DNA of 64,000 nucleotides from Mageeibacillus sp. UBA4314 (GTDB lineage: Bacteria; Bacillota; Clostridia; Saccharofermentanales; Saccharofermentanaceae): positions 2,161 through 66,160 of the forward strand of contig DGUI01000027.1 in assembly GCA_002394605.1 (NCBI GenBank), given 5' to 3'. This document shows, piece by piece, positions 26,808 to 34,082 of the stretch (its first letter is position 1; each line of letters begins with the position of its first letter). Under the pieces are notes generated by a model, which saw only the letters and a program-made list of their open reading frames with translations, was not told the DNA's origin and made no database searches. A program made the translations under genes and the position numbers.

Positions 26808-29387
26808 TTGGAGGTTGTTTTGCAGAATAAGTCGAAGTCGAAGTTATATTATGCCTTACTGGCATTTCTTTTTCTGCTTATACTTAAGCTTATCCTGTTC
26901 TTTGATGACAAACTCCTCGTATGGCTCTATGACGGCGCATCGCAGCATCTGTCAGCTCTCAATTATTACTCTCAGTACTTAAGAGACGTTTTCTCCGGGA
27001 TATTACAGGGGAATTTCCAGATCCCCAGGTTCGATCTGTCGATCGGTGAGGGAAGCGATATACTAACTACTTTCCATTATTACTGCATCGGCGATCCTTT
27101 CGCATTCTTCAGTGTTTTCTTCAGGGGCGAACTGGTCTATCTGTACTATGAGTTCTCGGTGTATCTGAGGTTATTCCTGTCGGGATTCTCGTTTCTGTTT
27201 TTTGCAAAACATTTCGACGGCGGAAGTCTCATGAAGAAGGCTTCGGACATCGTGGTCGCGGCAGCAGCTCTCATGTATGCGTTCTCATGCTGGTCGGTAA
27301 CTTGCATGGGCCGTCACCCGTTCTTCCTTAATCCGTGCATATTCATGCCGCTGATCCTTGCAGGCGTCGAAATGATCATAAGCAGAAAAAAGCGAGGCGT
27401 CCTTCTTCTATCCGTATTCCTGTCATCACTTTCCAATCTCTACTTCCTTTACATGATGGCACTGATCACAGTGATCTATACCATGGTCCGCCTGATCGTG
27501 ATGCATGGAAAGAACATAAGAGAATACATAAGGCCGTTATTGACTGCCGCTGTTGAGGCCGGCATTGGCGTAGTCCTGTCGGGTGCCGTTTTCTACCCGG
27601 TCGCCAGGGTATTTCTGGGCGACTCAAGAGTCGGCGGGAGCAATAACGTAGGAATATTCTACCCGCTTAAGTATTATCTGACGTTCCCTCAGTCGCTGAT
27701 ATCCGGCAACCTTGATTACTACAGGCTGTTCGGGATAGGTGCAGTAGGTGTCATCATAATCTATCTGGTATTTGTGAGGAGCTCTTCAAGACTTCTCAAG
27801 ATATTCTTTGTTATCACGGCGCTCTTCCTGATCTTCCCGGTATTCGGCACGGTCATGAACGGCTTTGCCTATGCATCCGACAGATGGTGTTTTGTCCTGC
27901 CACTGCTTACCGGTGCGGGGCTTATTGTAATATGGAACGATCTGGTCAACATAAAGAAGACCGATGCGGTAATACTCATGATCTTAATGGCAGGCGCCAT
28001 CGTGCTGTCTGTAATAGGCAAAGATATGCAGGGGATCACCGTTATGTCATTAGGCGTGGTCATGATCCTTATCATGTTTGTCATGAAGAGATTGAAGGTC
28101 AGAAGCGGCATTGCCATAGGAGTGATCGCCGTATCTGTCCTCTGCGGCATGATCTTCTATATCATCCCGTTCCTGCCGCAGCTCGCACCGATGAGCTGGC
28201 TCAATGTCTACTACAACGGCAATGAAGCGGCATACATCGCAGACATGGATAAGTCGCGTCCCTTAAGATACTCCGGCAATATCCTCACCGAAAACGTATC
28301 TCCGCTGTCACAGATCTCTTCAACGCAGTTCTACTGGAGCAACGCCAATCCGTATGTCGGAGAGTTCAGGACCGATATCGCGTCCCCTGAATACCGCCTC
28401 TATTACTACACTGGATACAATTCCTCATACACGCTCCTCAATCTGTCGGGAAGCAGATATTATGCGCAGTCCGGAATGCAGACAGAACCGCTTCCTTACG
28501 GTTACGAGAAATGCGCACATATGGATATCGGCTATGACATAATGCGCAATGTAAACGATACCTCTCTGGTCTATTCCTACGACAGAACGGTTCCTGAGCA
28601 GCAGTGGAAGAGCCTTACGCCTACTGACAGGCAGGTGCTTTTAGCACAGGCAATGGTCGTACCGGAAGATAACGGTCCTTCAGTTGACATTGCCCCGACG
28701 TCCGTAAGTTCAAGAGTTACGTCAACGGATAATGATCAGGTCACGATCGAGTTCGACGGCAGGCCCGGCAGCGAGACATATATCACATTCAGCAACATGA
28801 GATCAGATCTTGCAGATACTTTATTCTTCATTTTCGTGAATATCCCTGAGACAGGGGAGACATATGTGCTCAACTATTACACGATGTCCAACTGGTACAA
28901 CGGAAGGGATGAGTTCTCGCTCAACTTAGGCTGGCACGAGGATGCGATCCACAAAGCCGTTATCACGGTCGAGAACGATCTGAAATATCAGTGTGACTAT
29001 TCCGTATCCTGCATCGATATTAACAGTTCATCCGGGAATATCAAAAGAAGGTTTGAGGTCAAGCCTGAGAACCTGAGCGTTGAGGCGCGCGGCACAAAGA
29101 TCAGCTACTCTGTCGATTCTCCTGATGAGAGATATTATGTTCTGGCAGTTCCGTATTCCAAGGGATGGACGGCTTATGTTGACGGCAGCAAGGCTGAGAT
29201 ACTGCGATCAAATATACAGTACATGGCTGTTAAGCTTGATAAGGGCAGGCATGATGTCATGTTCGTCTATTCGGGTGATCAGGACACGGGTATTTATATG
29301 AGCATAGCAGGACTTATTGCTACCGCAATATATCTTGTCTGTGGTAAAATCATAGATAGAAAACGATCAGAGGAGATTGCACCATAA
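26808..29387 (+). CDS. YfhO-family GT-C glycosyltransferase (copy 3)
   Basis: DGASQH loop, W-less 'IGEGSDI...YYCIGDPF', HPFFLNP, NGFAY..DRW, AVPYSKGWTAYVDG + C-terminal TM. Confidence 0.88.
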   Translation: MEVVLQNKSKSKLYYALLAFLFLLILKLILFFDDKLLVWLYDGASQHLSALNYYSQYLRDVFSGILQGNFQIPRFDLSIGEGSDILTTFHYYCIGDPFAFFSVFFRGELVYLYYEFSVYLRLFLSGFSFLFFAKHFDGGSLMKKASDIVVAAAALMYAFSCWSVTCMGRHPFFLNPCIFMPLILAGVEMIISRKKRGVLLLSVFLSSLSNLYFLYMMALITVIYTMVRLIVMHGKNIREYIRPLLTAAVEAGIGVVLSGAVFYPVARVFLGDSRVGGSNNVGIFYPLKYYLTFPQSLISGNLDYYRLFGIGAVGVIIIYLVFVRSSSRLLKIFFVITALFLIFPVFGTVMNGFAYASDRWCFVLPLLTGAGLIVIWNDLVNIKKTDAVILMILMAGAIVLSVIGKDMQGITVMSLGVVMILIMFVMKRLKVRSGIAIGVIAVSVLCGMIFYIIPFLPQLAPMSWLNVYYNGNEAAYIADMDKSRPLRYSGNILTENVSPLSQISSTQFYWSNANPYVGEFRTDIASPEYRLYYYTGYNSSYTLLNLSGSRYYAQSGMQTEPLPYGYEKCAHMDIGYDIMRNVNDTSLVYSYDRTVPEQQWKSLTPTDRQVLLAQAMVVPEDNGPSVDIAPTSVSSRVTSTDNDQVTIEFDGRPGSETYITFSNMRSDLADTLFFIFVNIPETGETYVLNYYTMSNWYNGRDEFSLNLGWHEDAIHKAVITVENDLKYQCDYSVSCIDINSSSGNIKRRFEVKPENLSVEARGTKISYSVDSPDERYYVLAVPYSKGWTAYVDGSKAEILRSNIQYMAVKLDKGRHDVMFVYSGDQDTGIYMSIAGLIATAIYLVCGKIIDRKRSEEIAP

Positions 29388-30097
29388 TGGATACTTTATA
29401 TGTTGTCATGCCGGCTTATAACGAGGAAGAGAATATCGAGGCTGTTATAAGACAGTGGTATCCGGTGCTGGCATTGGGTTCTTCCGATTCCAGACTTGTC
29501 ATAGCTGACAGCGGAAGCGTTGACAAGACACACGATATAATCGAGGGGATGAAGGAGAACGGCTATCCTCAGCTTGAGGCATATCCCGATACATTGAAGC
29601 AGCATGGCCCCAAGGTTATCGCACTCTACAAGTATGCGATCGATCATGGCGCTGATTATGTTTTCCAGACTGACTCTGACGGACAGACAAATCCTGATGA
29701 GTTCACGGCATTCTGGGAGATGAGGAATGCATATGATGCTCTGTTCGGAAGAAGGGTCAACAGGGGAGACGGTAAGTCGAGAGCTTTCGTGGAGAAGGTT
29801 GTATGTTTCCTTCTGAGGCTTTATTTCGGAGTTAAGGTCAAGGATGCGAATGCGCCATTCAGACTCTTTAAGACTGATGTGCTCAGCAAGTATGTCGGAA
29901 GATTCGAAGAGGATTATAACCTTCCTAATATCATGCTCACGACATTCTATGCTTACTATCATGAGAATTACTGTTTCCGCGACATCACTTTCAAGCCCAG
30001 GCAGGGCGGTGTTAATTCCATTAACATCAAGAAGATCTTTAAGATCGGCTGGAAGGCATTAGGTGATTTCCGCAGGTTCAAGAAGACGATGCGATGA
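29387..30097 (+). CDS. GT2 glycosyltransferase (polyprenol-phosphate sugar synthase, CsbB/GtrB/DPM1-like)
   Basis: VVMPAYNEEENI, D.GS.D.T, QTDSDGQ, D.NAPFRL; coupled to YfhO-3 (TAATG). Confidence 0.9.
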   Translation: MDTLYVVMPAYNEEENIEAVIRQWYPVLALGSSDSRLVIADSGSVDKTHDIIEGMKENGYPQLEAYPDTLKQHGPKVIALYKYAIDHGADYVFQTDSDGQTNPDEFTAFWEMRNAYDALFGRRVNRGDGKSRAFVEKVVCFLLRLYFGVKVKDANAPFRLFKTDVLSKYVGRFEEDYNLPNIMLTTFYAYYHENYCFRDITFKPRQGGVNSINIKKIFKIGWKALGDFRRFKKTMR

Positions 30098-30471
30098 GGA
30101 AGCCCGTTAATAAAGGTTTGAGGAATGCCCTTATAGCGGGGGTGCTGTTCCTTCTTGCAGGCATCGGGTATTATGTTTTTATCAGGATCACCGGAACTAC
30201 GATCCATTGCACCATAAGATCCGTAACCGGGTATCTGTGTCCCACATGCGGCATAACCCATATGTTCATGAACCTGTTTGAGTTCAAGTTTGCCGAGGCA
30301 TTCAGGTGTAATCCGTTTATGTTCATAACCTGGCCGCTCATAGGCGCGGAGATACTTTATATCTTCTATGTCGGGGGCAATAACAGGGAACTTCCCAAAT
30401 GGAATTACGTAATGCTGTATATATATATTGGTTTATTGATCTCTTATGGTATAATCAGAAATGTTATTTAA
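30094..30471 (+). CDS. DUF2752 family membrane protein
   Basis: C.IRSVTGYLCPTCGITH.F..L....F.EAFRCNP motif. Confidence 0.85.
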   Translation: MRKPVNKGLRNALIAGVLFLLAGIGYYVFIRITGTTIHCTIRSVTGYLCPTCGITHMFMNLFEFKFAEAFRCNPFMFITWPLIGAEILYIFYVGGNNRELPKWNYVMLYIYIGLLISYGIIRNVI

Positions 30472-30501
30472 CAAATATTTTTATCAATAGGGGGTCTAGA
30501 T

Positions 30502-30864
30502 ATGGAAAATCAGGAATTCCAGAACTACGGACAGGTCTACAACCAGATGAATGACGGCGGAAGCGCACCTTCAGGCGGTAAGGGTCTTGCAGTTGCATCA
30601 CTGGTTCTTGGCATTGTAGGTGCGGTAATGGGATGCTGCTTTTATATAGTTGGTATCGGGTGCGGTATTGCTGCAATTGTCATGGGTGCTATTGCTAAGA
30701 AGAAGGGACAGCGCGGAATGGCTACAGCTGGTCTAATTCTTGGTATCATTGCAACTGTTATCTATGCAGGTGCTTGGATATTCACTATTATTTATGCTTC
30801 AACGCATCCGGAGTATATGGAGAATTACAACAGAATTATGAACTCACTCCTCGGCAAGAAGTAA
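30502..30864 (+). CDS. DUF4190 family membrane protein
   Basis: GLAVASLVLGIVG...CC...GI..GI.AIVMG...K....G.A.AGLILGII. Confidence 0.82.
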   Translation: MENQEFQNYGQVYNQMNDGGSAPSGGKGLAVASLVLGIVGAVMGCCFYIVGIGCGIAAIVMGAIAKKKGQRGMATAGLILGIIATVIYAGAWIFTIIYASTHPEYMENYNRIMNSLLGKK

Positions 30865-30891
30865 TACCTGATAAGAGTCTAAGATCAAACG

Positions 30892-30920
30892 GAGCCGGTC
30901 CTTTACGGGACCGGCTTTTT
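30892..30920 (+). terminator. Intrinsic terminator
   Basis: GCCGGTCC-tttacg-GGACCGGC followed by TTTTT. Confidence 0.8.
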
Positions 30921-30940
30921 ATGATCTTTGAAAATAATTG

Positions 30941-30969
30941 TTGACAAAACCTGATACTCCAGATAAAAT
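30941..30969 (+). promoter_or_regulatory. SigA promoter of metY
   Basis: TTGACA-N17-TAAAAT. Confidence 0.82.
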
Positions 30970-30974
30970 ACCAT

Positions 30975-30999
30975 AAAACCTATCGAACAGATAGGAATT
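30975..30999 (+). promoter_or_regulatory. CymR/Rrf2-like operator overlapping the transcription start
   Basis: AAAACCTATCGAACAGATAGGAATT contains the CCTATC-N5-GATAGG palindrome and the ATNGGAATT end recalled for the B. subtilis CymR box. Confidence 0.55.
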
Positions 31000-31022
31000 A
31001 TAGAAAAAGGAAAAGGCACATC

Positions 31023-31079
31023 ATGATCAACTACTTTGAATCATTGGTAAGAGCTAATTACAGATGCGGACGAATGTGA
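31023..31079 (+). CDS. Putative 18-aa leader peptide MINYFESLVRANYRCGRM
   Basis: AAGGAAAAGG RBS, ATG 31023, TGA 31077-31079; lies within the metY 5' leader and ends in Cys-Gly-Arg-Met. Confidence 0.5.
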   Translation: MINYFESLVRANYRCGRM

Positions 31080-31140
31080 TCCCGCTGTTCTGACGCACTT
31101 TATTAAATTACCAACTATTCATATAAAAGGAGAATCGATC

Positions 31141-32424
31141 ATGAGTAACTATAGATTTGAGACACTTCAGCTTCACGTAGGACAGGAACAGGCAGATCCC
31201 GCAACAGATTCCAGAGCAGTACCTATTTATCAGACAACATCATACGTATTCCATAATTCAGCACACGCTGCTGCAAGATTCGGTCTTGCCGATGCAGGCA
31301 ACATCTACGGAAGACTTACAAATTCCACACAGGATGTATTGGAGAAGAGAGTGGCAGCACTGGAGGGCGGTGTTGCAGCACTCGCAGTAGCTTCAGGCGC
31401 AGCAGCCATCACATATGCACTCGAGGCGCTCGCACAGGCAGGTGACCATATCGTTGCACAGAAGTCCATCTACGGCGGTTCTTACAACCTTTTGGCACAT
31501 ACCCTTAAGCTCCTCGGTGTCGATACGACATTCGTTGATATCCACAACCTTGCAGAGGTAGAGGGCGCGATCCGTCCTAATACGAAGGCAGTATTCCTTG
31601 AGACGCTCGGCAACCCCAACAGTGATATCCCCGATATCGAGGCAGTGGCAGCAATTGCCCACAAGAACAGCATCCCCGTAGTCATCGATAATACTTTCGG
31701 TACGCCTTACCTTATCCGTCCGATCGAGCACGGCGCTGACATCGTTGTACATTCAGCTACGAAGTTCCTCGGTGGACACGGCACGACATTGGGCGGCATC
31801 ATCGTTGATTCCGGCAAGTTCGACTGGAAGGCAGCAGGCAAGTTTGCCCCCATCGCAGATGCAAACCCCAGCTATCACGGAATCTCTTTCGCGGATGCAG
31901 TTGGACCTGCAGCATATGTAACATACATCAGGGCTATCCTGCTCCGTGATACAGGCGCTGCCATCTCACCGTTCAATGCTTTCCTGCTCCTGCAGGGTAT
32001 CGAGACCCTGTCACTGAGACTTGAGCGTCACGTTGAGAACACGAAGAAGGTTATCGAGTTCCTGTCTGACAACCCCAAGGTTGCAAAGATCAACCACCCT
32101 TCACTTGCTGATCATCCGCAGAACGCACTCTACAGGAAGTACTTCCCTAACGGCGCAGGATCGATCTTCACTTTCGACATCAAGGGCGGTCAGGAAGAAG
32201 CACACAAGTTTATAGATGCACTTGAGATATTCTCTCTGCTCGCTAACGTTGCTGATGTTAAGTCACTTGTTATCCATCCTGCCACAACTACTCATTCGCA
32301 GTTGTCAGCAGAGGAACTGGCTGATATCGGCATCAATCCCGGAACGATCAGACTGTCCATCGGTACTGAGCATATCGATGACATCCTTGCTGATCTGCAG
32401 AAGGGCTTCGACGCATTAAACTAA
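31141..32424 (+). CDS. metY: O-acetylhomoserine aminocarboxypropyltransferase/sulfhydrylase
   Basis: FETLQLHVGQE, VPIYQTTSY, YGRLTN, HSATKFLGGHG (PLP Lys), ANVADVKSLVIHPA.TTH. Confidence 0.95.
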   Translation: MSNYRFETLQLHVGQEQADPATDSRAVPIYQTTSYVFHNSAHAAARFGLADAGNIYGRLTNSTQDVLEKRVAALEGGVAALAVASGAAAITYALEALAQAGDHIVAQKSIYGGSYNLLAHTLKLLGVDTTFVDIHNLAEVEGAIRPNTKAVFLETLGNPNSDIPDIEAVAAIAHKNSIPVVIDNTFGTPYLIRPIEHGADIVVHSATKFLGGHGTTLGGIIVDSGKFDWKAAGKFAPIADANPSYHGISFADAVGPAAYVTYIRAILLRDTGAAISPFNAFLLLQGIETLSLRLERHVENTKKVIEFLSDNPKVAKINHPSLADHPQNALYRKYFPNGAGSIFTFDIKGGQEEAHKFIDALEIFSLLANVADVKSLVIHPATTTHSQLSAEELADIGINPGTIRLSIGTEHIDDILADLQKGFDALN

Positions 32425-32440
32425 GAGCCATATAACAAAG

Positions 32441-32482
32441 AAGGAGCCGGGCATCTCCAATTGAAGACCCGGCTCCTTTTTT
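32441..32482. terminator. Bidirectional intrinsic terminator
   Basis: AAGGAGCCGGG...CCCGGCTCCTT followed by TTTT. Confidence 0.82.
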
Positions 32483-32500
32483 GTTTGTCTTAAAAACCGA

Positions 32501-32935
32501 TCACTTAACGATCTTGATCTTATCTCCAATAACGGGAATAGAGAAAGGAAGATTCCTTGCGGCGCTGATGATGCCGAGTACTCTCAGAGCGATGATACCG
32601 CCGTAAACACCGAATGAGAGGATGGAGATGAGGAATCCGAGATGGAGCAATCCGAAAACTAGCCCCAGAATGAACAGTGTGATGCCGCATGCACCTGTAG
32701 CGATATCGATGAGGATACCATTGTTAACATGTCCCCTGACGAAAGGCATGGTCTTCTCAGGTCTGATGAGGAGACCCAAGAGCCAGAGCATACCGCAATA
32801 AGCGAGGATGCTGAACAGCTTGGCATTGGTTCCTGCGGGAGCAGACTGCTGATTTGTATAAGGCTCGGGCTGACTTAAGATCTGCTTGGCCTGTGCTGAT
32901 TCCTGAGAAGGATCATAGTTCTGATTGTTTTCCAT
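32501..32935 (-). CDS. DUF4870-like membrane protein
   Basis: 'FSILAY.G.LWL.GL......FVR.H.N.G.L...' and 'IPVIG' pattern; three TMs. Confidence 0.65.
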   Translation of the reverse strand: MENNQNYDPSQESAQAKQILSQPEPYTNQQSAPAGTNAKLFSILAYCGMLWLLGLLIRPEKTMPFVRGHVNNGILIDIATGACGITLFILGLVFGLLHLGFLISILSFGVYGGIIALRVLGIISAARNLPFSIPVIGDKIKIVK

Positions 32936-33025
32936 ATTATTCCCTCCATATGCGCATAATGGTAATATAGTATCATTATACTTTAAAAGTTTTCATTTTG
33001 GAAAAATATTGAACGGGAATGGACA

Positions 33026-33748
33026 ATGAAAGTAACAAGATATCACAAAGGCGATAAAACAACATATTCTCTGGGCGCAACGGTCACGATGGAGTATCTG
33101 GTAAACAGGCCTTCTATAGTACGTGCCGTCATCCTGCATCCTGATACGTCACCTGAGATAACGGACAGGATAAAGGAACTCTGCAAAGGAACCGGCATTG
33201 AGATCACATACGATGCCAAGGCATTTAACATTCTCTCCCAGAAAGAGAACTGCTTTGTAATAGGCGTCATCGATGTTGAGGAAGACAGGATAGGGGAGGG
33301 TTCCCATGTCGTCCTGGTCAACCCGTCCAACAGTGGCAACATGGGAACCATAGTAAGGAGCTGTGCAGGTTTTGGTATAGACGGCATAGCAATAGTCCTT
33401 CCGGCTGCTGACATTCATGATCCCAAGACGATAAGGGCCTCCATGGGGGCGACGTCGAGGGTCAATGTGGAAGTGTTCGAGACTTTCGAAATGTATAGAG
33501 AGAGGTTCCCGGATAATAATCTGTACCCGTTTATGCTCGATGGAAGCAAGCTTTTGCAGGAAACGGAGATAATAAGCCCGTTTAGCCTGATCATGGGCAA
33601 CGAGGGATCAGGGTTGCCTCAAAAGTTCCGGTATATCGGACAGCCTGTCAGGATAGAACATACAAACGCCATAGACAGCCTTAATCTGCCGATTGCGACC
33701 AGTATCGGACTGTATGAAGCCACAAAGAAGCGTTTTATTGAAAAATAA
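33026..33748 (+). CDS. TrmH/SpoU-family RNA methyltransferase
   Basis: NPSNSGNMGTIVRS, K.IRASMG, IMGNEG.GL, SLNL..A..I.LYE. Confidence 0.9.
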   Translation: MKVTRYHKGDKTTYSLGATVTMEYLVNRPSIVRAVILHPDTSPEITDRIKELCKGTGIEITYDAKAFNILSQKENCFVIGVIDVEEDRIGEGSHVVLVNPSNSGNMGTIVRSCAGFGIDGIAIVLPAADIHDPKTIRASMGATSRVNVEVFETFEMYRERFPDNNLYPFMLDGSKLLQETEIISPFSLIMGNEGSGLPQKFRYIGQPVRIEHTNAIDSLNLPIATSIGLYEATKKRFIEK

Positions 33749-33751
33749 CTA

Positions 33752-33780
33752 TTGATAATCAAAAACAATCATGATAGACT
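33752..33780 (+). promoter_or_regulatory. Promoter of rpsT
   Basis: TTGATA-N17-TAGACT with TG extension. Confidence 0.65.
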
Positions 33781-33824
33781 TATCGGGTTAAATTAAGATT
33801 ATTATTAATACGGAGGAGATACTA

Positions 33825-34082
33825 ATGCCTAACATTAAGTCAGCTATCAAGCGTGTAAGCGTAACTGAGAAGAAGACAGCTGCCAACAAGATGAAGAAGA
33901 GCGAGATCCGCACTACTGTCAAGAAGGCTAAGGCTTCCGTTGCTGCAGGTGAGGCAACTCCCGAGACATTGAAGAATGTCCAGAAGACACTGGATCAGGC
34001 AGCAGCAAAGGGCCACATCAGCAAGCAGGCTGCATCCAGGACAAAATCAAGGATCGCTAAGGCTGCTAATGCCGCAAAGTGA
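33825..34082 (+). CDS. rpsT: 30S ribosomal protein S20
   Basis: MPNIKSAIKR...N...KS..RT..KK, LDQAAAKG.I.K..ASR.KSR. Confidence 0.97.
   Translation: MPNIKSAIKRVSVTEKKTAANKMKKSEIRTTVKKAKASVAAGEATPETLKNVQKTLDQAAAKGHISKQAASRTKSRIAKAANAAK

Follow-up and report, generated by a model that had tools for sequence, protein, structure and literature searches.

What regulates methionine synthesis in Mageeibacillus sp. UBA4314, and what is the 18-codon open reading frame (ORF) that precedes its metY gene? In most other Firmicutes metY and metNIQ are controlled by the S-box (the SAM-I riboswitch; SAM, S-adenosylmethionine) and the methionine T-box, RNA-only sensors of SAM or of uncharged tRNA. We analyzed a 64,000-nucleotide (nt) stretch of this genome, here called the window (GenBank assembly GCA_002394605.1, contig DGUI01000027.1, positions 2,161 to 66,160 of the forward strand). 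The regulated gene, metY, lies on the forward strand at 31141-32424 and encodes a pyridoxal phosphate (PLP) enzyme of the O-acetylhomoserine sulfhydrylase type with 427 amino acids (Pfam PF01053, E = 1.3e-133). A covariance-model search of positions 29000-34000 revealed no S-box, T-box or other Rfam family, even at E <= 10, and an earlier inspection of the letters alone (the sequence-only reading) had likewise seen neither element. That reading proposed an undescribed translation-coupled attenuator or arrest peptide ahead of metY. Comparison with other genomes supports the proposal: the small ORF is conserved at the amino acid level in at least 166 distinct sequences, precedes metY, metQ or metN in 148 of 154 cases, and matches no family in Rfam, Pfam or NCBIfam and no paper in the searched literature. 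The family it represents is widespread and unnamed; its leader peptides occur in gut and rumen Clostridia, almost only before methionine genes, and in them a pausing ribosome probably reports a shortage of methionine or cysteine.

The elements of the leader that had been described could all be read in the sequence. A sigma-70-type promoter (TTGACA-17-TAAAAT, 30941-30969, forward strand, 11 of 12 matches), whose TTGACA is equivalently placed in orthologous leaders, puts the metY transcription start at about 30976 and gives a leader of about 165 nt. On the same strand a Shine-Dalgarno region (AAGGAAAAGG, 31007-31016) with AAGG at 31013-31016 is followed, after a 6-nt spacer, by the ATG (31023-31025) of the upstream ORF (uORF) MINYFESLVRANYRCGRM (31023-31079), whose 18 codons are closed by TGA (31077-31079). 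The sole Cys codon (TGC, 31065-67) and the sole internal Met codon (ATG, 31074-76) fall within the final four positions. The frame ends in CGA-ATG-TGA (31071-31079), that is, a rare Arg codon, an invariant Met18 codon and the stop.

Conservation of the uORF was determined by two motif scans. The first covered one genome per species with the pattern AAYTWYMGNNNNGGACGAATGTG and returned at least 120 loci; the second, in metagenomes, fixed only FEKLxRxN(F/Y)RFG, left the following codons free and also returned at least 120 loci, with 55 distinct hits. Combined, the scans yielded at least 166 distinct family members, and all family counts given here are among the matches listed. About 100 of the genome-scan loci encode M-x3-F-E-K-L-(V/L)-R-x-N-(F/Y)-R-x-G-R-M, and the consensus of the family is x3-F-E-K-L-V-R-x-N-F/Y-R-x-G-R-M. 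An in-frame start with a preceding Shine-Dalgarno motif was present in 144 of the 166 members, and Met is residue 18 in 113 of these 144. The conserved positions are F5..L8.R10.N12.R14.G16-R17-M18, with every second residue fixed (L.R.N.R.G-R-M). For the invariant Leu all six codons are used (CTT 36, CTG 27, CTC 17, TTA 11, TTG 7, CTA 3), and so are all six for the invariant Arg two residues further on (AGA 57, CGG 15, CGC 12, CGT 8, AGG 8, CGA 4), which indicates selection on the peptide. By record title the carriers include Oscillospiraceae, Ruminococcaceae, Acutalibacteraceae, Lachnospiraceae, Christensenella, Mogibacterium, Butyricicoccus, Blautia and Roseburia, among others; cultured carriers include the rumen isolates Ruminococcaceae bacterium YAD3003 and P7, and Eubacterium sp. 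OM08-24.

The sequence-only reading had staked its proposal beforehand on conservation of the uORF, and the motif searches found strong conservation; judged by it, the leader ORF in the window is more than a chance reading frame. The match that the same reading drew between the Cys and Met codons and the products of the pathway held in part. Both codons do stand in the last four positions, but position 15 is Phe in 79 of 105 copies, and the Cys of the window is a minority variant that is probably incidental; the invariant features are Arg(CGA)-Met. No further GGACGAATGTG uORF occurs in this genome, which therefore has a single leader of this kind (type A). Type A leaders were also seen in metagenome-assembled genomes labelled Bacteroidaceae, Hallerella, Coriobacteriaceae, Sodaliphilus and Treponema (loci L048, L053, L063, L086 and L093), either by horizontal transfer or by binning errors. 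In two loci (L013 and L137) the module NFRCGRMCCSCSNS is tandemly duplicated inside the leader ORF, giving two in-frame CGA-ATG sites.

The end of the peptide was free to vary in the metagenome scan. Among the 55 distinct hits the residue after Gly is nevertheless Arg in 54, and the next is Met in all 55. The Gly codon varies (GGA 36, GGG 12, GGT 4, GGC 3); 48 of the 55 hits encode the penultimate Arg by CGA, the rarest Arg codon of the genome (1.9% of those in long ORFs), which at the two other Arg positions of the peptide is used in 4 and 21 of 105 copies. Directly after Met the same hits have a stop in 20 cases (TGA 17, TAA 3), Cys in 21 and another residue in 14. In the combined set 51 of 166 members (about one third) stop directly after Met, mostly at UGA and across distant taxa. 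The remaining members carry tails of 1 to 40 residues that are 23% Cys, compared to 1.5% in the proteome, and 108 of 115 tailed members have a Cys among the first eight tail residues.

The genes behind these leaders are highly uniform. Among 154 listed members the downstream ORF is metY in 129, metQ (NlpA lipoprotein) in 16 and metN (ABC plus NIL domains) in 3, and throughout the leader ORF is the first cistron of the methionine operon. The Met codon typically lies 52-80 nt before the metY start, regardless of tail length, and 67 nt before it in the window. The remaining few members precede a gene of the URO-D family (L093) or a ThiF/TcdA-like gene. Four metagenome contigs (L157, L176, L212 and L251) have a variant tail, GRMSPSRTQLLCGS..., before a gene for a ThiF/TcdA-like (E1-type) protein of about 256 amino acids, an assignment made by reading the sequence only. 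By comparison, then, a conserved, methionine-gene-specific leader ORF is established.

The family appears to be undescribed. Rfam gave no hit on the leaders of 11 related loci, the peptides had no match in Pfam, NCBIfam or the chains of the PDB (nascent chains included), and no paper in the searched literature describes such a leader or contains the peptide motif. A collection of 15 billion proteins lacks nine of the ten family peptides tested, which indicates that gene callers miss the family; the tenth is unnamed there.

Within the genus, we aligned the 400 nt upstream of 30 metY orthologues (65-89% identical). A short upstream ORF with an in-frame CGA-ATG was present in 22 of the 30, and in 19 of these 22 the next letters are TG, leading to a stop (TGA) or to Cys. 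Type A leaders encode a window-like peptide: MIGYFERLVRANYRCGRM* in the sister species (L002), where the 18-codon frame is retained and the changes are synonymous and conservative, ...FQSLVRANFRCGRMCCSCSNSRCSD... in L011, ...MLRRNYRNGRMCLCMCTR in L026, and the Cys-free MFTIQKETRHNYRQGRM (ending ...TRHNYRQGRM*) in L024. Type B leaders are packed with Met and Cys codons and are followed by an intrinsic terminator (for example MSATYRKSMCMCMMPCWYEMEIECFSCHVDDQDTRM* in L016), and they still finish with CGA-ATG-TGA. Terminators follow the leaders of L008, L016-L023, L026 and L030. The comparison thus reveals that the orthologous metY locus alternates between two leader designs and keeps CGA-ATG-TGA in both. 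Eight loci (L008, L016, L017, L019-L023) have metY leaders of the Met/Cys-codon-rich kind (SMCMCMMPC...CFSC...RM* is one) together with an intrinsic terminator; the CTTCTC conserved in their CFSC codons is the complement of GAGAAG in the 5' arm of this terminator, a possible antiterminator.

Compared to L011 the window is about 18 nt shorter after ATG-TG, TGA stands in place of the TGT of the relatives, and an in-frame SRCSD remnant lies past the stop. The alternation of TGA with TGT or TGC after Met also raised the idea that TGA is read through or encodes selenocysteine. This was rejected, as the frame after TGA is unrelated and soon stops in eight other leaders; the rejection rests on the post-TGA sequence, and neither a SECIS-like element nor sel genes were searched for. 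Six orthologues (L003, L004, L007, L009, L025 and L028) have no leader of type A or B before metY and carry other palindromes instead, such as TTATAGG...CCTATAAC and GGTTATCAAA..TTGATAACC, which suggests different operators or regulators.

A search for small ORFs rich in Cys and Met revealed two more leaders in the genome itself, both on contig C40 (locus L273) and both with CCRM encoded as TGT-TGT-CGA-ATG. The first unit (7427-3459, reverse strand) consists of the leader MRKMCCCRMYDFRAMDRFSPGVCRC*, a promoter with 12 of 12 matches, a terminator, and then genes for a Cys/Met-PLP enzyme (metB/C-like), a PALP enzyme (CysK-like), metN and metI. Past its Arg-Met, the strand (CTTCCGGGCG) is the complement of the terminator's 5' arm, which fits ordinary attenuation logic. 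In the second unit (3410-2252, reverse strand) the leader MYKINCTTIDMMCCRMPNSR... is followed by a GC-rich hairpin with a T-run, recognized by eye and missed by the scan, and then by metQ. The genome has a single SAM-I riboswitch, which precedes metK, and seven T-boxes elsewhere.

How would such a leader work? We lean, with modest confidence, towards the reading that the uORF is a translated cis-regulatory leader peptide that in many Clostridia takes the place of the S-box or T-box at genes for methionine synthesis and uptake and would act by ribosome pausing. A shortage of charged Met-tRNA (or, in the variants with a tail, of Cys-tRNA) would make the ribosome pause while CGA occupies the P site and AUG, or then UGY, stands in the A site. 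The paused ribosome, probably with a second one queued behind it in the window, would hold the uORF strand of a hairpin unpaired, the metY ribosome-binding site would be freed, and MetY would be made. With ample methionine the ribosome would terminate at once at UGA, the hairpin would re-form, and translation of metY would stay low. The sensed step would most simply be the reading of the Met codon, plus the Cys codons where present, because the Arg-Met core persists in the leaders with runs of Met and Cys codons, because the tails are Cys-rich, and because a shortage of methionine or cysteine calls for the target genes to be turned on. The comparison further suggests that nascent chain and P-site codon act together to set up the pause: the 14 conserved residues and the CGA codon could make a pause at a single codon long and sensitive. 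In yeast, CGA decoded by an inosine tRNA is inhibitory.

Folding of the whole window leader (30977-31155) gave -40.7 kcal/mol (z = -3.61, with 0 of 200 shuffles as good). In the predicted hairpin the uORF forms the 5' arm (31020-31068), and the 3' arm (31094-31147, forward strand) comprises the spacer, the metY Shine-Dalgarno sequence AAGGAG (31127-31132) and the start codon; the proposed pause site, Arg-Met-stop, lies near the apex. Duplexes between a leader's own two arms reach -28.9 kcal/mol in the window and -34.2 in L002, compared to a mean of about -13 to -17 with the arms of other members. Among 111 members the metY Shine-Dalgarno sequence is predicted to be mostly paired, with partners at -18..-7 and +6..+14 from the Met codon. 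Masking a ribosome at Arg-Met raised its unpaired probability in these members from 0.29 to 0.57, and masking one at codon 4 gave 0.30 (p ~1e-12).

Several results weigh against this reading. In the copy of the window itself the mask at Arg-Met left the unpaired probability of the Shine-Dalgarno sequence where it was (0.33 before and after), and a mask early in the uORF gave 0.82; a queue of ribosomes must therefore be assumed. The uORF 3' end pairs with the metY Shine-Dalgarno region at -11.6 kcal/mol, and with those of unrelated genes at -10.8 (p = 0.16), and across the family own-arm energies were no different from cross-arm energies. Covariation of the RNA, a check that the sequence-only reading had suggested, was not significant at fixed register. 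Moreover, a lone Met codon would be an unusually small sensor for a mechanism based on hungry codons, and such a mechanism alone leaves the conservation of the peptide unexplained. Pairing between the uORF and the metY Shine-Dalgarno sequence is thus plausible but unproven. A separate signal, compensatory pairs between anti-Shine-Dalgarno and Shine-Dalgarno sequences found with RNAduplex, vanished at fixed register and was discarded as an artefact of free alignment.

The RNA switch that had been drawn in the sequence-only reading differs from this hairpin. It opposed GCGGA (31066-70) paired with TCCCGC (31080-85) to TGCG (31065-68) paired with CGCA (31094-97), the latter ahead of TTTATT. The letters are as described, but on folding the region 31056-31110 reaches only -9.6 kcal/mol (z = -1.1), a value matched by 27 of 200 shuffles, so the mutually exclusive pairings do not rise above chance. 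A terminator at TTTATT was not borne out: a stem of only 4 bp precedes TTTATT, and a terminator scan between uORF and metY (31080-31140) was negative.

There is also a bolder proposal, which we advance tentatively and do not expect to be the likelier outcome: the 18-residue peptide would be a new nascent-chain sensor. Together with the CGA codon in the P site (inosine tRNA, I:A wobble) it might slow acceptance of Met-tRNA or release at UGA, so that one Met codon would gauge methionine supply sensitively, or it might bind a sulfur metabolite; in either case it would be a methionine-specific arrest peptide replacing SAM riboswitches in abundant gut and rumen Clostridia.

Among the rival explanations, an arrest peptide that senses a ligand survives best, and we still consider it rather unlikely. 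Here the chain FEKLVRxNFRxGRM would bind a metabolite (methionine, SAM, homocysteine or similar) in the exit tunnel and block or permit peptide bond formation or termination at Met18, and tRNA charging would not be the signal. It would account for the 14 residues nearest the peptidyl-transferase centre being conserved as amino acids at a fixed length of 18, and for the third of the members, L024 for example, that stop directly after Met, mostly at UGA, without any Cys codon. However, UGA after Met is also explicable as a one-step mutation from UGY, and the Cys-rich tails and the sister leaders full of Met and Cys codons fit sensing of codon supply better. The sign of the response is a further difficulty. 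The targets are biosynthetic and uptake genes that should turn on when the end product is low. Stalling of the ribosome is predicted from the folds to expose the binding site, and stalling by a ligand would therefore act the wrong way unless the ligand signals shortage.

Purifying selection on the peptide and the invariable place of its ORF as first cistron of the methionine operon would also suit a trans-acting micropeptide, co-transcribed for instance as a partner or regulator of the methionine enzymes or transporters. We find this very unlikely: the C-terminus varies freely, from a stop at 18 to tails of 1-40 residues, the rare CGA is selected at one position only, and the spacing between the Met codon and the next start is constrained. 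The Arg-Met core is in addition embedded in otherwise unrelated Cys/Met-rich leaders with terminators, and Pfam, NCBIfam and PDB hold no match.

An RNA-only element, that is, a riboswitch or protein-binding leader in which the reading frame is incidental, appears more improbable still. The nucleotides of GGACGAATGTG are nearly invariant, a complement of at least 6 nt to CGAATGTG (ACATTC, for example) occurs in the spacer of 21 of 111 members compared to 3.4 expected, and the leader is significantly structured (z = -3.61). The spacer complement may partly account for the conserved CGAATGTG nucleotides. Against such an element stand the use of all six Leu and Arg codons at invariant residues, the in-frame start led by a Shine-Dalgarno motif (144 of 166) at an 18-codon distance (113 of 144), and a fixed helix that lacks covariation support and any Rfam match. 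Least credible of all is a chance, functionless ORF in this genome, a decaying remnant in which TGA has cut off the Cys-rich tail of the relatives: the 18 nt missing compared to L011, TGA for TGT and the in-frame SRCSD after the stop would fit it, but stop-after-Met18 forms make up about one third of the family over distant taxa, L002 keeps the 18-codon frame, and the core, Shine-Dalgarno motif, length and 67-nt distance from Met to ATG are all typical of the family.

The sequence-only reading placed its attenuator on top of a repressor site, and this layer found support. An operator-like palindrome, AAAACCTAT-N7-ATAGGAATT (30975-31001, forward strand), with the 17-bp core CCTATCGAACAGATAGG (30979-30995), lies at the transcription start and is likely a repressor site of the Rrf2/CymR type, judged by its letters and recurrence; it appears to resemble the CymR box of B. 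subtilis. The palindrome recurs before five other sulfur-related promoters and adjoins an Rrf2 gene. In the form AAAACCTAT-N7-RTAGG it is found at all three leader-bearing promoters (metY, metB/C-cysK-metNI and metQ) and also before a cysK-like gene, a nifS-like (cysteine desulfurase) gene and a gene for a 173-amino-acid ECF-S-like membrane protein, all three named from their first residues only. The further sites are at about 19172 on contig C9, at about 20999 on C17, on C43 (minus strand) and on C40. The genome has 8 copies of the bare palindrome, no more than the roughly 8.6 expected, but 6 of the 8 face sulfur-related genes. Of the two Rrf2 genes, one (C40, 7447-7881, forward strand) is divergent from the promoter of the leader-controlled C40 operon, and the other is about 2.5 kb from the cysK-like site. 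The palindrome-bearing genes look like a small sulfur regulon of the Rrf2/CymR type. At metY the repressor site at the transcription start would add a second, transcriptional layer of control to the leader peptide.

Known systems share parts of this design. The leaders trpL, hisL, pheL, thrL, leuL and ilvL of Proteobacteria are likewise short translated ORFs in the leaders of amino acid operons, where ribosome speed at cognate codons sets expression, and the C40 leaders and the Cys/Met-rich leaders of the genus resemble them also in having terminators. The uORF of the window differs, with no terminator before metY and one Met and one Cys codon in place of a run; the family differs in the 14 residues conserved as amino acids, in selection for one rare codon (CGA) and in its clostridial hosts. 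To our knowledge no methionine-specific version of classical leader-peptide attenuation is known, and our literature searches found no described methionine-specific leader-peptide attenuator. Among published systems, those nearest to the family are the Cys leaders predicted in Actinobacteria (Seliverstov et al. 2005, PMC1262725) and the polycysteine leaderless small ORFs of mycobacteria (Canestrari et al., bioRxiv 10.1101/834739), which are uORFs with Cys codons at sulfur and cysteine genes where the ribosome awaits charged tRNA-Cys. The tails of our family, with 23% Cys, look like the same device. Those ORFs are leaderless and Cys-only and have no conserved core, whereas the leaders described here are led by a Shine-Dalgarno motif, have an 18-residue core ending in Arg(CGA)-Met, act before methionine targets and have dispensable tails.

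The translational attenuators of ermC and cat provide a parallel for the predicted folds: there too a ribosome stalled in the leader ORF, as predicted here, melts a hairpin that hides the binding site of the next gene, and the peptide sequence matters. Their effector is a ribosome-bound antibiotic; here it would presumably be the supply of aminoacyl-tRNA, and the pairing lacks covariation support. Among nascent-chain sensors, TnaC responds to tryptophan and SpeFL to ornithine, and in plants the MTO1 region of CGS1, which acts at the first step of methionine synthesis, responds to SAM. All three share with the window family a short conserved nascent chain with about 14 critical last residues, a stall (putative here) at or by the stop, which is UGA in TnaC, and genes of the cognate pathway; like TnaC, SpeFL and SecM, the family has its C-terminal conservation at a fixed distance from the proposed stall codon. 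TnaC, SpeFL and CGS1 have no sequence similarity to the family, and they induce catabolic or decarboxylase genes via Rho or degrade their own mRNA. The S-box and Met T-box would be functional analogues of the leader ORF; neither occurs at the window leader.

In Firmicutes the textbook control of methionine genes is by RNA alone, and the leader family points to a third, ribosome-based system. Its carriers, Oscillospiraceae, Ruminococcaceae, Acutalibacteraceae, Lachnospiraceae and their neighbours, dominate gut and rumen communities. The leader may be a compact case in which a single sense codon becomes an amino acid sensor through a conserved nascent chain and one rare codon. Together with the Rrf2 repressor it would define a small sulfur regulon in this genome that can guide annotation and metabolic modelling of uncultured Clostridia.

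Around the locus, the ORF upstream of the metY promoter (30502-30864) matches DUF4190 and ends in an intrinsic terminator read from the sequence, GCCGGTCC-loop-GGACCGGC followed by TTTTT (30894-30920, forward strand), which isolates the metY transcription unit. Directly 3' of metY an opposite-strand ORF of 144 amino acids (32501-32935, reverse strand) had no Pfam match. Weak hits to small RNA and microRNA families at about 32434-32526 scored far under threshold and resemble a bidirectional terminator hairpin. On contig C40 a fragment of a group II intron (RF02001, 73 bits) occupies the contig end (1-128, reverse strand).

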